Positions 56,618 to 61,175 of a DNA stretch of 64,000 nt are shown here, in pieces; positions within the stretch are counted from its first letter, which is position 1, and each line of letters starts with the position of its first letter. The position numbers were made by a program, and so were the translations under genes. Under the pieces are notes generated by a model, which ran no database searches, was not told the origin of the DNA, and worked only from the letters and a program-made list of their open reading frames with translations. The stretch comes from Felixounavirus LF110P2, in sequence record OZ035782.1, one strand, 5' to 3'.

Positions 56618-56699
56618 TTTTAAAAGGTGTTGACAGACTCTACAAAGTTACTCTAAAGTCTGTCACATCAACAAACAAAATGAGAGAAGAGAGTAAAAT

Positions 56700-58115
56700 A
56701 TGAGCGAATTATTTAAACATGCGCACCTTCATGCAGGTCGAACTGAAAATGGTGCTGTAAACCATACTTCATCAATGTCTGCTCTTGTAGACTTTTACAA
56801 AGCTGCTGGTTCGAGCCGTAGCAATGTAGAAATCTTACCAGACCTGTTCTACAAAGCTTTGCGTGAGGATGTTGATGTTGCAGTTCGTATTTTGCTTCAC
56901 ATGCGAGATGTACGAGAAGGTATGGGTGAGCGTAAAGCCTTCAGAACTGTTTTGCTTCAAGCAATTGAAGATAAAGTTTTAGAGCCTACACAGGTTCTTC
57001 GCATTATGGATAAGATTGCAGAACTTGGTCGTTTTGATGACTTCAAAGTCTTCGTAGGTACTCGTTTCGAGACAGATGCCTTCAAACATTTAGAAGCAGC
57101 ATTACTAGACCCTGCAACAGCAGGTTTGGCAGCTAAGTGGTTACCACGAGTCAAACCACGTCATAAGCAGTTTGTAAAACGTTTCTGCAAGTTTGCCAAC
57201 TTGAGTGAGAAAGAGTACCGCACACTGTTGTCTGCACTATCTGATACAGTTGAGCAAAAAATCTCTGCTAATGAGTTTGGTAAGATTGACTACAGTAAGA
57301 TTCCTTCACTTGCTGCTGCACGTTACCAAAAACTGTTTAACCGTAAAGATGGAGAACGCTACAAAGCTTACATCGAGTCCTTATCAAAGGGTGAGACTAA
57401 GATTAATGCTGGTGCTGTTTACCCATACGATGTAATTAAATCTGTTAAGCATGGTAATGCAGATGTTGCTAATGAGCAGTGGAAAGCACTACCAAACTGG
57501 ATGGCAGAGGGTGAAAACATCTTGTGTATGTCTGATGTTTCAAGCTCAATGTCTTGGGTGAATTTTGGTTCAATTACTGCTCTTGATATTGGTGTTTCAC
57601 TTGCATTGTATGTAGCAGAACGTAATACAGGTTGCTTTAAGAATGAGTTGATGGTTTATTCAACAAACCCTCACTTCATCGAACTGAGTGGTGATTTACG
57701 AAACCGTCATCGTCAGGTGATGCGACACGTTGAATATGGCTCAACTAACTTACAAGCTGCTTTTGACCGTATTCTTGAGACAGGTAAAAGAAACAACTTG
57801 ACTCAGAAAGATATGCCAAGTAAGCTTATCATCTTCTCCGATATGGAGTTCAATCAGGTTGATGGAGCTAACGGTCGTACAAACTTTGAAGCAATTCAGA
57901 GTAAGTACAAAAAAGCTGGATACGAAATGCCACAACTGGTATTCTGGTACTTAGCAAACCGTAATGGCACTTGCGAAGTGTCTGTTAAGGATAACGGTGT
58001 AGCAATGGTATCAGGGTTCTCTCCAGCCACTTTAAAAGCTCTGCTTGGTGGTGAGAAGTTTGACCCAATCAGTGTAATGCTCAAAGCAGTAATGATTGAC
58101 CGTTATATCTGGTAA
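56700..58115 (+). CDS. vWA-domain protein (MIDAS motif); possible Ro60/TROVE-like protein
   Basis: C-terminal vWA signature: DVSSSMSW (DxSxS), GSTNLQAAFDRIL, IIFSDMEF; N-terminal 270 aa unassigned; Ro60-like call is inference from domain order and the adjacent tRNA-like RNAs. Confidence 0.5.
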   Translation: MSELFKHAHLHAGRTENGAVNHTSSMSALVDFYKAAGSSRSNVEILPDLFYKALREDVDVAVRILLHMRDVREGMGERKAFRTVLLQAIEDKVLEPTQVLRIMDKIAELGRFDDFKVFVGTRFETDAFKHLEAALLDPATAGLAAKWLPRVKPRHKQFVKRFCKFANLSEKEYRTLLSALSDTVEQKISANEFGKIDYSKIPSLAAARYQKLFNRKDGERYKAYIESLSKGETKINAGAVYPYDVIKSVKHGNADVANEQWKALPNWMAEGENILCMSDVSSSMSWVNFGSITALDIGVSLALYVAERNTGCFKNELMVYSTNPHFIELSGDLRNRHRQVMRHVEYGSTNLQAAFDRILETGKRNNLTQKDMPSKLIIFSDMEFNQVDGANGRTNFEAIQSKYKKAGYEMPQLVFWYLANRNGTCEVSVKDNGVAMVSGFSPATLKALLGGEKFDPISVMLKAVMIDRYIW

Positions 58116-58130: not shown

Positions 58131-58165
58131 GTATTGACAATGTGTTTAATACCCTTTAATATGTT
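58131..58165 (+). promoter_or_regulatory. candidate sigma70 promoter upstream of the tRNA array
   Basis: TTGACA (58134-58139), 17-nt spacer, TAATAT; -35 sits inside a GGGTATT..AATACCC hairpin. Confidence 0.45.
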
Positions 58166-58280
58166 CTACATAGAAGCGAAATGAGAGCTTTTCTAAGATA
58201 CTGAAAAATATTTTAAAAAAGTTCTTGACAACCACTAAAAAATAATGTTAAAGTGGTTACATAGAGTTTGAAAAGTTTAT

Positions 58281-58448: not shown

Positions 58449-58522
58449 ACAGAAGACCAATTACAGCAAACTTAATCTTATTCATCTGAAGGTAAATCGG
58501 ACAAAGAAGAGATTTGGTCTGG
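58449..58522 (+). ncRNA. conserved stem-closed element, copy A (candidate small RNA)
   Basis: ACAGAAGACCAATTACAGCAAA...TTGGTCTGG; 7-bp closing stem AGACCAA/TTGGTCT. Confidence 0.4.
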
Positions 58523-58533
58523 TCATTAAGAAT

Positions 58534-58610
58534 TGCGGGTATAGAGAAAGGGCGTCTCACATGTCTCATTAGCATGGTATCGGCAGGTTCGACTCCTGCA
58601 CCCGCCTCCA
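58534..58610 (+). tRNA. tRNA with CAU anticodon (Met/fMet/Ile2 unresolved)
   Basis: T-arm GCAGGTTCGACTCCTGC, 3' acceptor ACCCGCC + T + CCA; position 1:72 unpaired (U:C); loop CTCATTA. Confidence 0.5.
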
Positions 58611-58615
58611 AATTT

Positions 58616-58680
58616 ACAGAAGACCGTTTACAGCAATATTTATTAAATTTTTAGCGGAAAAATTGAAAGATACGGTCTGG
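58616..58680 (+). ncRNA. conserved stem-closed element, copy B
   Basis: ACAGAAGACCGTTTACAGCAA...ACGGTCTGG; closing stem AGACCGT/ACGGTCT (compensatory change relative to copy A). Confidence 0.4.
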
Positions 58681-58693
58681 TAATACTAAACAT

Positions 58694-58770
58694 GGTTAGG
58701 AAGCACATAAGGTATGTGCGGTCGCCTGTTAAGCGAATGGCACAGGGTTCGAATCCCTGACTAACCGCCA
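58694..58770 (+). tRNA. tRNA-Asn (anticodon GUU)
   Basis: D-arm GCAC..GTGC, loop CTGTTAA, T-arm CAGGGTTCGAATCCCTG, CCA encoded. Confidence 0.6.
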
Positions 58771-58839
58771 AATTTAGGAGAGAAGCGATTGCTCACCGAT
58801 TTGTAAGGTGCAAGTCCTTAGCCTGAATAGAAATTAAAT

Positions 58840-58927
58840 GTGTCGTTATCCCGTAGATGGTAGCGGTGGGGACTGTAAATCCCTTGTCATTGAGACTCGG
58901 TAGGTTCGACTCCTACACGGCACACCA
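58840..58927 (+). tRNA. tRNA-Tyr (anticodon GUA), long variable arm
   Basis: Anticodon stem-loop GGGGA-CTGTAAA-TCCCT, long variable arm, T-arm GTAGGTTCGACTCCTAC, CCA encoded; 88 nt. Confidence 0.6.
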
Positions 58928-58932
58928 ATAAA

Positions 58933-59010
58933 GGTTATGTAGTTTAATTTGGTTAAAATACTCCCCTGTCACGGGAGATGATGAGGGTTCAAATCCCTTC
59001 GTAACCGCCA
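58933..59010 (+). tRNA. tRNA-Asp (anticodon GUC)
   Basis: Acceptor GGTTATG/CGTAACC, anticodon stem-loop CTCCC-CTGTCAC-GGGAG, T-loop GGTTCAAATCC, CCA. Confidence 0.65.
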
Positions 59011-59071
59011 ATTTTGAGAGGGCTATTTAGCCCCTCCCTTAAAGGGTTCTTACGAGTATCCTTTAAAGGAG

Positions 59072-59148
59072 CAGAAGACCAAATACAGCAAGAATGTATG
59101 ATATTTTCAAGCCAATTCAATTTTGAAAAAATTTAAAACTTGGTCTGG
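59072..59148 (+). ncRNA. conserved stem-closed element, copy C
   Basis: GCAGAAGACCAAATACAGCAAG...TTGGTCTGG; closing stem AGACCAA/TTGGTCT. Confidence 0.4.
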
Positions 59149-59161
59149 CTCAAAAAATTTA

Positions 59162-59293
59162 CAGAAGACCGTTTACAGCAAAACTTAAACAATCTATTTC
59201 TCCGGTAAAGAAAAGGCGAAGGTTCGATTCCTTCACTCGGCAGATGTCGAGTTGGTGTAATGGTAGCACTTAAGATGATAAACAACGGTCTGG
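59162..59293 (+). ncRNA. conserved stem-closed element, copy D, enclosing a circularly permuted tRNA-like domain (YrlA/Y-RNA-like candidate)
   Basis: Closing stem AGACCGT (59166-59172)/ACGGTCT (59285-59291); inside, in order: T-arm GAAGG-TTCGATT-CCTTC (59218-59234), ACTCGGC (59235-59241), loop AGAT, GTCGAGT (59246-59252, pairs with ACTCGGC), D-arm GTGT-AATGGTA-GCAC (59255-59269). Confidence 0.45.
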
Positions 59294-59298
59294 TAATT

Positions 59299-59434
59299 AT
59301 CTTTGTAGATAAGTTATTAAGCTTACCTGTGAGTATGCGACCACAAAGGGTGAAAGGGTAAATTCTAGATTTAAACCCAAAAAGGCACATCGCTACAGAC
59401 CTTAAGCAAGTCTGGGTAGCTTATCTACAAAGAT
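59299..59434 (+). ncRNA. structured element closed by a perfect 15-bp inverted repeat (candidate small RNA)
   Basis: ATCTTTGTAGATAAG (59299-59313) pairs with CTTATCTACAAAGAT (59420-59434); encloses 106 nt with internal hairpins. Confidence 0.35.
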
Positions 59435-59442
59435 AATTTAAT

Positions 59443-59721: not shown

Positions 59722-60014
59722 AACTAAAATACTTCATAATATGTATAATTCAAACACCAATACATGAGCGTTAGACGTAACACAATGTGGGGAAATTTGT
59801 TGTACATATTCTGAATAGTTTTCGTTGCGTAGCGTCTATTTTGCAAATTTAAAATAAATGCAAACGACAATGTTTTTCTGGCAGTAGCTTGATAGGCTAA
59901 ACACCAGTGAGGTCTTCCAATCCCTCATCAAAGAATTTGGCGTACTCGCCCACGGTATGATTAATAAGGTGGGCATCTTTAAGGGCTTTCTAAGAGAGTC
60001 TTTAAAGATTAATG

Positions 60015-60416: not shown

Positions 60417-60673
60417 CCTAATAAGATTTAAAGCCAAGCTTCATTCGGATGTTGCTTTGGTATACCGCGTGTATTGTTGTACGCACTGATAAAGCACCTA
60501 GTAGGTGTCACGGAGAAGAGATAATATCAAGCTCTCCAAAGGTTCTAGTCACCGGATTAAACAAGACTATGCAAAGACCTTTTTAGGTCTTTTTAGAGGG
60601 CTTCTAAGGTTATTACAGCTTGTTGTGGAACCTTGTTGCTTAGGTTCTTAGAAGTTCTCTAAAAAGATTTAAT

Positions 60674-60751
60674 GGGAGATTGATGGTAATTGGTAAACCT
60701 ATCTCGCTTAGAACGAGATGTTTGAGGGTTCGAATCCCTTGTCTCCTACCA
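60674..60751 (+). tRNA. tRNA with Leu-type anticodon UAG, short variable arm
   Basis: Anticodon stem-loop ATCTCG-CTTAGAA-CGAGAT, T-arm GAGGGTTCGAATCCCTT, acceptor GGGAGAT/GTCTCCT, A73, CCA; variable region only 4 nt. Confidence 0.5.
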
Positions 60752-61079: not shown

Positions 61080-61175
61080 ATTCAGAGGTCAAGTGAAAGA
61101 CCGCTTTGAGTCAACTGAAGACCGTAACAAATTCCACGGAGTTGAGTTAGCGGCACAACTTCAGACCTCTTTCAC

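Follow-up and report, generated by a model that had tools for sequence, protein, structure and literature searches.

What are the repeated, stem-closed elements that lie between the first transfer RNA (tRNA) genes of Felixounavirus LF110P2? The window studied here, meaning the whole 64,000-nucleotide (nt) stretch of sequence record OZ035782.1, contains four of them, which we call A to D. An initial annotation, made without database searches, had described them as a family with conserved end-stems and variable interiors, of the kind expected of RNAs that bind a protein. Our analysis suggests that A-D are small noncoding RNAs of a Y-RNA-like family, and that their partner is most likely a Ro60-like protein encoded upstream of them, at 56700-58115. 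We give this reading, which is drawn by analogy with the Y RNAs, the RNA partners of Ro60 proteins, a probability of about 0.7. The elements are most likely Y RNA equivalents because their family, a large one, is nearly always found next to the gene for a Ro60-like protein; the family itself is apparently undescribed.

Four stem-closed elements in the tRNA array

Megablast placed the region in a Felixounavirus, with 100% identity to phage LF110P2; at least 80% of the query was also covered by each of 233 other phage records (Escherichia, Salmonella, Shigella, Citrobacter and others). From 58281 onward the plus strand of the window carries an array of tRNA genes, 26 according to ARAGORN and 24 according to Rfam, and all four elements are situated on that strand in the first part of this array:

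58449-58522, plus strand: element A, short; closing stem 58454-58460 / 58514-58520 (AGACCAA/UUGGUCU), motif UUACAGCAA at 58461-58469, GG after the 3' strand
58616-58680, plus strand: element B, short; closing stem 58621-58627 / 58672-58678 (AGACCGU/ACGGUCU), motif at 58628-58636
59071-59148, plus strand: element C, short; closing stem 59076-59082 / 59140-59146 (AGACCAA/UUGGUCU), motif AUACAGCAA at 59083-59091
59161-59293, plus strand: element D, long and YrlA-like; closing stem 59166-59172 / 59285-59291, motif at 59173-59181

Element A is flanked by tRNA-Glu and tRNA-Met, and element B by tRNA-Met and tRNA-Asn. The shared 5' and 3' motifs reported initially are present in all copies. The pattern CAGAAGACCNNWTACAGCAA matches exactly four times in the window (58450, 58617, 59072 and 59162), and still four times with 3 mismatches allowed, against an average of 0.14 in shuffled sequences; a repeat search of the window returned the same four-copy family (D7). 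The coordinates first given for A and B were right, whereas C and D had been started one base too late, their in-register starts being 59071 and 59161. Element C begins with GCAGA and not ACAGA.

In each copy, the 7-nt 5' strand of the stem is directly followed by (U/A)UACAGCAA, and the exact complement of the stem plus GG is found 35-103 nt downstream. As described, the closing stem is AGACCAA/TTGGTCT in A and C and AGACCGT/ACGGTCT in B and D, each followed by GG. This difference had been taken as compensatory change and as an argument for a selected RNA structure. The structure is borne out by the stems of distant phages presented below, but the double change within this genome is weak evidence alone, because A and C, and likewise B and D, look like duplicate pairs, so that the change was probably a single event. 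Judged by sequence comparison, the strong evidence for covariation lies in other phages and not in the window alone.

RNAfold closes all four elements by the 7-bp stem, with modest single-sequence z-scores of -1.0 to -2.4 (-2.4 in B, where an inner hairpin AAUUUUU-AGCGG-AAAAAUU forms). The interiors had been called AT-rich and variable. Variable they are, and A, B and C are indeed AT-rich (GC 0.32, 0.17 and 0.21, against 0.39 for the window), but D is not (0.40). The claim that only D contains a tRNA-like domain was confirmed by arm anatomy, as A-C have no T loop.

A TTACAGC at 60613-60625 had been proposed as a recurrence of the motif. This site reads TTACAGCTT and lies inside a different long hairpin, the spacer at 60579-60676; in close relatives it is TTACGGC, TTAGTCGC, or unalignable. 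Because it is not conserved there, we rejected it as a fifth member and consider the resemblance coincidental. Searches of Rfam 15 at gathering and at permissive E thresholds returned no family for the elements, with only tRNAs passing; the scores on the elements were at chance level (Dicty_Class_I at about 20 bits, E 4-5; tRNA at 22 bits on part of D). The ACAGAAGACC/GGUCUGG flanks raised the possibility of a small self-cleaving ribozyme (hairpin, hammerhead, HDV-like or twister), but Rfam gave no match and the conserved cores were absent. A promoter reading of TTTACA/TTGACA at the 5' ends of the elements was also rejected, as it produced one weak site (58613, 9/12) and a regional count at shuffle level.

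The comparison with related phages that the initial annotation had recommended found the elements present with their pairing kept. In about 40 Felix-like loci, the elements keep their first 21 nt and last 11-12 nt almost unchanged, and substitutions and indels have built up in the interiors. Element A, in 12 distinct orthologous sequences, has invariant ends and a variable interior, and the ends of A-C are as conserved as those of D. One-sided stem changes retain pairing via G.U (AGGCCAA/TTGGTCT, AGACCGA/TTGGTCT), and the positions of the elements are identical across the Felix-like loci examined. Escherichia phage JohannRWettstein (Bas63) has all four, with the motif variants UUGCAGCAA and AUUCAGCAA, which also occur in distant phages. 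In its record, the elements (L239, 2830-3104) lie in unannotated spacers, partly under two minus-strand coding sequences, bas63_0137 and bas63_0138.

Linkage to a Ro60-like gene in distant phages

The gene at issue is the following:

56700-58115, plus strand: gene for a Ro60-like protein of 471 aa; N-terminal helical repeat ring, C-terminal vWA domain, DxSxS MIDAS

This open reading frame ends 334 nt before element A, and A-D lie 334-1178 nt downstream of it on the same strand. In Pfam, its product matches only DUF2828 and DUF7788 (E up to 0.01), and PDB sequence searches, both with the protein and with a profile, found no Ro60 match. In contrast to these sequence-level results, an AlphaFold2 model built from 36 homologues (predicted local distance difference test score 88) gave, in Foldseek, 12 best matches that were all Ro60/TROVE structures, aligned over the whole length. 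The MIDAS residues D279, S281 and S283 are invariant in the family alignment. The protein is thus predicted to have the Ro60 fold, a likeness that exists at the level of the fold only. The DUF2828/DUF7788 family gave 2543 matches among the candidates scored, and a literature search on DUF2828 found nothing relevant.

The product is 97.9% identical to its orthologue Bas63 gp130, which was described as structurally Ro60-like, has its gene immediately before the tRNA array, and was reported to counter the Ppl defence system (PhageMaP preprint, PMC11482910). The authors of that 2024 preprint guessed that 'some tRNA genes' may be Y RNAs, naming none (PMC11482910); they pointed to tRNA genes, whereas the elements described here are not annotated tRNAs.

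Two observations concern the 5' side of this gene. Its promoter-like site (TTGACA-18-TAAAGT) lies at 56625-56668 within an inverted repeat, TGACAGACT...AGTCTGTCA, which may be an operator. In other phages, mini-hairpins made of a stem plus CAGCAA are found upstream of the gene start, directly before the Shine-Dalgarno sequence in L045 (3954-3986) and L065 (3932-3981), and about 55 nt before the start in L110 (3906-3944). These mini-hairpins look like an arrangement for autoregulation by the same protein, in which an operator would mimic the RNA partner.

To follow the elements beyond the Felix-like phages, we used 75 viral loci (L044-L118) whose homologue is 39-48% identical to the window protein. 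The descriptor required a 7-nt stretch directly adjoining NNNCAGCAA and, 10-235 nt further downstream, the complement of that stretch; the pair statistics relied on this descriptor with strand, offset and shuffle controls, in place of R-scape. On the gene strand it matched 99 times; the opposite strand gave 26 matches, and block shuffles gave 6-21. Of the 75 loci, 59 had a match, and 73 of the 99 matches lay within 1 kb of the gene. The matches were also enriched in two features outside the descriptor: in 84 of 99 the stem was followed immediately by G (binomial p = 8e-36 against 0.25), and in 60 of 99 it began with AG. An exact 6-nt complement was found downstream of 28.5% of the motif matches versus 8.7% of control 6-mers taken 8-20 nt upstream of the motif (p = 2e-13). 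In a reverse test, starting from exact AAGGNNNNTTACAGCAAA in viral contigs, the gene was present in the sequence stretch analysed at 11 of 46 closed sites versus 1 of 75 unclosed sites (Fisher p = 9e-5), an underestimate of the linkage because many of the sequence stretches are short. When run on the window, the descriptor returned A-D plus three others (two on the plus strand in the first 16 kb, one on the minus strand), which we read as chance, as shuffles average 1.0.

The stems of the distant phages are nearly all different (GGTTCC/GGAACC, GGATGC/GCATCC, GTGTTG/CAACAC, GGATTG/CAATCC, GAGCAG/CTGCTC and others), changing on both strands, with double changes at all 7 pairs and an invariant CAGCAA beside them. 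Among elements at the same position after the stop codon, we observed a compensated series (GGTTCC, GGTTCT, GGTTTC, GATTCC, GGTTAT, GGCTTC) with matching 3' strands. Motifs resembling TTACAGCAA are concentrated on the strand of the gene, immediately behind it or in front of it, and distant loci often present the gene, a short element and then a long element. Altogether, the loci sampled hold at least 164 distinct family instances, of which 26 of the 164 contain a T-loop; aligning full-length short members with MAFFT misplaced their 3' strands because the interiors differ in length. The elements thus travel with the gene for a protein of the Ro60 fold, which agrees with the initial impression of a protein-binding RNA family, the binding itself being suggested by this co-occurrence and by analogy.

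Because elements abut the stop codon of the gene in many phages, and a mini-version precedes the Shine-Dalgarno sequence in some, they might instead be cis-acting sites on longer transcripts, that is operators or sponges for the Ro60-like gene or the tRNA operon, and not free Y-type RNAs. Such a role would still presuppose binding by the same protein and would change only the function of the RNA; it is possible for some copies. As a general account we consider it unlikely, since the elements of the window lie 334-1178 nt beyond the gene, behind two separate promoter-like sites, and a cargo as elaborate as a whole tRNA-like body would be needless for a simple operator.

Many of the distant loci have no tRNA gene within 4 kb; therefore, the elements follow the gene and not the tRNA array. 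This bears on the idea that they are punctuation of the tRNA precursor, spacer hairpins that guide RNase E, III or P or protect 3' ends and need no dedicated protein. The elements do share a transcription unit with the tRNAs on either side, excision of those tRNAs would set them free in any case, and other spacers of the array are strongly structured too. However, those structured spacers lack the motif, and the same stem-plus-CAGCAA accompanies the Ro60-like gene in many contigs where 4 kb around it are free of tRNA genes. Furthermore, the invariant single-stranded CAGCAA and the 3' G are not known to be host RNase signals. We hold the punctuation account to be rather improbable.

The tRNA-like body of element D and other structured RNAs of the array

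What, then, does the long element carry? Behind its closing stem, D presents a V/anticodon-like hairpin (59197-59213; 5-bp stem, 7-nt loop), a canonical T arm (59218-59234; GAAGG-UUCGAUU-CCUUC), an acceptor-like stem of 7 bp capped by the loop AGAU (59235-59252), and then, after UG, a D arm (59255-59269; GUGU-AAUGGUA-GCAC). Together these parts make up a complete cloverleaf in circularly permuted order, opened between the D arm and the anticodon arm. A comparison of 15 distinct orthologous sequences shows no change in the T and D arms and three versions of the acceptor-like stem, in which changes on one strand are compensated on the other (ACTCGGC/GTCGAGT, ACACG/CGTGT, ACCCTTC/GAAGGGT). Consistent with this, RNAalifold recovered the closing stem, the T arm, the acceptor-like stem and the D arm from the D orthologues, with compensatory changes in the acceptor-like stem.

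Decoding tRNAs are matured from permuted genes in Cyanidioschyzon merolae, and from split ones in Nanoarchaeum, via a bulge-helix-bulge and a splicing endonuclease. D resembles them in that the 3' half of the cloverleaf is encoded upstream of the 5' half, but differs in that its acceptor end is a closed loop and its anticodon loop is not conserved. No bulge-helix-bulge or splicing-endonuclease machinery is known in the host.

D could nevertheless be a working permuted or split tRNA-Thr(GGU), matured by cleavage of the acceptor loop, with A-C as decayed copies. When its halves are re-ordered in silico, ARAGORN calls a tRNA-Thr(GGT), GenBank record REP5 annotates the D orthologue as a 131-nt 'tRNA-Thr GGT' (L037, 2200-2330), and the 7-bp acceptor-like stem resembles that of Mycobacterium smegmatis YrlA, which is cleaved by RNase P (PMC4201824). 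Several results speak against this account, which we regard as very unlikely. In its native order, D is not called by ARAGORN and scores below the Rfam tRNA cut-off of 29 bits; it is not a contiguous cloverleaf, and it does not encode the CCA read in the tRNA genes of the array. The 'anticodon' loop has no fixed length, with 6 nt (CGGUAA) in several of the Felix-like loci and 7 nt in the rest; it also varies in sequence (CCGGUAA, CUGGUAA, CUAUGAA, AGGGUAU), and the Mordin version, once re-ordered, gives a different 'anticodon'. Ends as conserved as those of D are also not what decayed copies would have. As the anticodon-like loop varies in both length and sequence, we take D as a tRNA mimic and not a decoding tRNA. 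The 131-nt tRNA-Thr of REP5 and the 'hypothetical protein' coding sequences bas63_0137 and bas63_0138 are probably mis-annotations.

The least credible account is that of DNA-level repeats (miniature inverted-repeat mobile elements, recombination sites, or sites of a homing endonuclease or DNA-binding protein): terminal inverted repeats, several copies per genome and the HNH endonuclease genes inserted in the array region of some relatives would suit it, but the elements keep one orientation, co-directional with the gene (99 versus 26), and the same positions among the Felix-like loci examined, where mobile elements would be expected in both orientations, at variable sites and with a conserved repeat sequence, while their stems vary freely between phages, the asymmetric CAGCAA is fixed on one strand, and pairing is kept via G.U, which is relevant only in RNA.

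Members of the family in other phages carry tRNA-like pieces as well. Long members enclose tRNA-like bodies of differing layout (L093 3734-3833, L051 317-438, L080 3789-3897, L084 3459-3594), that of L093 appearing to follow the usual tRNA order of D arm, anticodon arm and T arm. Some short members contain an anticodon stem-loop identical to that of E. coli tRNA-Lys, UUGACUUUUAAUCAA, or closely similar to it (inside L044 7799-7858, L065 3801-3859 and L084 3754-3817); variants include UAGACUUUUAAUCUA in L204 and a CUU version in L230 (3327-3382). Since several anticodon nucleases attack tRNA-Lys, the members that bear this stem-loop may act as decoys.

The array holds further structured RNAs on the plus strand. 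Directly after D, at 59293-59440, lies a 148-nt RNA with a closing stem of about 24 bp (inverted repeat I2) and three inner hairpins; its fold z-score is -6.3, and it has no Rfam match and no CAGCAA motif. Two more strongly structured tRNA spacers are found at 60579-60676 (z -6.4) and 61080-61175 (z -3.7). The segment 59824-60013 gives a sub-threshold Rfam match to transfer-messenger RNA (tmRNA; 15.9 bits, E 2.6e-4, model positions 56-294 only), and a tag-like open reading frame at about 59861-59893 contains GCAAACGACAAUGUUUUUCUGGCAGUAGCUUGA, encoding ANDNVFLAVA*, close to the E. coli tmRNA tag region. Since ARAGORN finds no tRNA-like domain there, this could be a tmRNA-derived fragment or mimic. 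Finally, the segment 60235-60309 is tRNA-like, with an acceptor stem, a T arm and an anticodon region CCUCCAAAA that contains CCA; it was missed by ARAGORN and by the Rfam tRNA model, and scores 23 bits with the tRNA-Sec model. It may be an aberrant tRNA-Trp, because Trp is the only amino acid without a called tRNA in the array.

Comparison with Y RNA systems and proposed mechanism

How close is this system to known Y RNAs? The nearest parallel is the bacterial YrlA/YrlB RNAs with their Ro60 protein Rsr, in Salmonella Typhimurium (rsr-yrlB-yrlA), M. smegmatis and mycobacteriophages (PMC4201824). There, as here, the RNAs lie within about 1 kb of a gene for a Ro60-fold protein and are co-directional with it, their 5' and 3' ends pair, a short conserved motif stands on the 5' side, and a long member is accompanied by shorter ones without a tRNA domain. 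D shares with YrlA the loop-capped permuted tRNA body in the module order V-T-AS-D (PMC4201824; bioRxiv 10.1101/312249), in which the T and D arms are constant and the acceptor stem varies. The order of gene, short RNA and long RNA in distant phages resembles, in our reading, that of the name rsr-yrlB-yrlA.

The differences are equally clear. A-D carry (U)UNCAGCAA directly beside a 7-bp stem with a G after its 3' strand, in place of GNCGAAN0-1G, which is absent from their 5' parts; D has GGCGAAG at the V/T junction only, where relatives have GGAGAAG or GAGAGAAG. The partner, unlike Rsr, belongs to the DUF2828/DUF7788 clade. Here four paralogues lie within a tRNA array, and some members in other phages carry only a mimic of the anticodon stem-loop. 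With GNCGAAN0-1G absent, no TROVE at the level of sequence and no Rfam match, A-D are not of the YrlA family as defined. The survey of Chen et al. (2014) searched TROVE-annotated genomes only (PMC4201824), and for that reason it missed the DUF2828/DUF7788 branch. In Thermus phage phiLo, by comparison, Ro60 is a TROVE protein by sequence, Yrl1 and Yrl2 use CGAA, and there is no tRNA array (PMC12135203); binding was demonstrated for phiLo, whereas here we infer it. That A-D work like a Y RNA system would be the simplest account by analogy.

A number of results weigh against the Y-RNA-like reading. The 56700-58115 protein has no Pfam TROVE match by sequence, and the conserved motif of the elements differs from the known Ro60-binding motif, as it appears to be single-stranded beside a helix and not in a bulged helix. 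The descriptor finds nothing in 16 of the 75 distant loci, its opposite-strand count of 26 exceeds the shuffle level of about 10, and several family-like sites occur in viral contigs without a Ro60-like gene in the stretch, which is often short. Because the instances were chosen by complementarity, the pair counts are descriptive and not an independent test. Covariance model R1, made from trimmed 40-nt constructs, failed to recover real elements and returned chance-level window matches only, a technical failure, as it could not bridge the long interiors. In addition, the searchable literature yielded no Felixounavirus transcriptomes.

Our model for the Y-RNA-like elements starts from a module that all share, in which the 5' and 3' ends pair in a 7-bp stem beginning with A-U and G-C, a nearly invariant single-stranded (U)U(A/U/G)CAGCAA directly follows the 5' strand, and a G follows the 3' strand. 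Together, stem, motif and 3' G would form the protein-recognition module, a counterpart of the 5'-strand motifs GGUCCGA (animal) and GNCGAAN0-1G (bacterial) bound by Ro60. The variable interior would be the effector part, with A-C as short AU-rich hairpins like YrlB and D as a permuted tRNA body like that of YrlA. For their transcription, the following sites come into question:

58134-58162 and 58225-58254, plus strand: two candidate sigma-70-like promoters, by consensus match only

In a consensus scan, these read TTGACA-17-TAATAT and TTGACA-18-TAAAGT, each 10/12, with the promoter count of the region at shuffle level; they would drive the first transcription unit of tRNAs and elements. A-D are probably co-transcribed with the tRNAs from there and would be freed as discrete RNAs when host enzymes excise the flanking tRNAs. 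The resulting ribonucleoproteins would then gate the Ro60-like ring, or tether the ring to host RNA-handling factors.

More tentatively, we hypothesize that the stem-plus-CAGCAA is a display handle, by which a Ro60-like protein widespread in phages would hold tRNA pieces as decoys or sensors against tRNA-targeting and other RNA-directed defences. The pieces held would be the permuted tRNA body in D, and anticodon stem-loops of the tRNA-Lys(UUU)/(CUU) type in other phages. We consider this possible, if doubtful; were it true, the four RNAs would be the RNA component that the reported anti-defence activity of Bas63 gp130 has so far lacked.

Ro60 proteins and Y RNAs form a conserved system of RNA surveillance whose role in bacteria and phages is still poorly understood. 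If A-D are Y RNA equivalents, they would reveal a large phage branch of this system in which both partners have diverged beyond sequence recognition, and would supply RNA candidates for a phage protein, Bas63 gp130, already implicated in defence evasion. This would also explain the conserved 'spacers' and the mis-annotated 131-nt 'tRNA-Thr' in the Felix O1-like records examined. Lastly, a tRNA-derived cargo located within a tRNA array is relevant to the proposed origin of YrlA-type RNAs from tandem tRNA transcripts.

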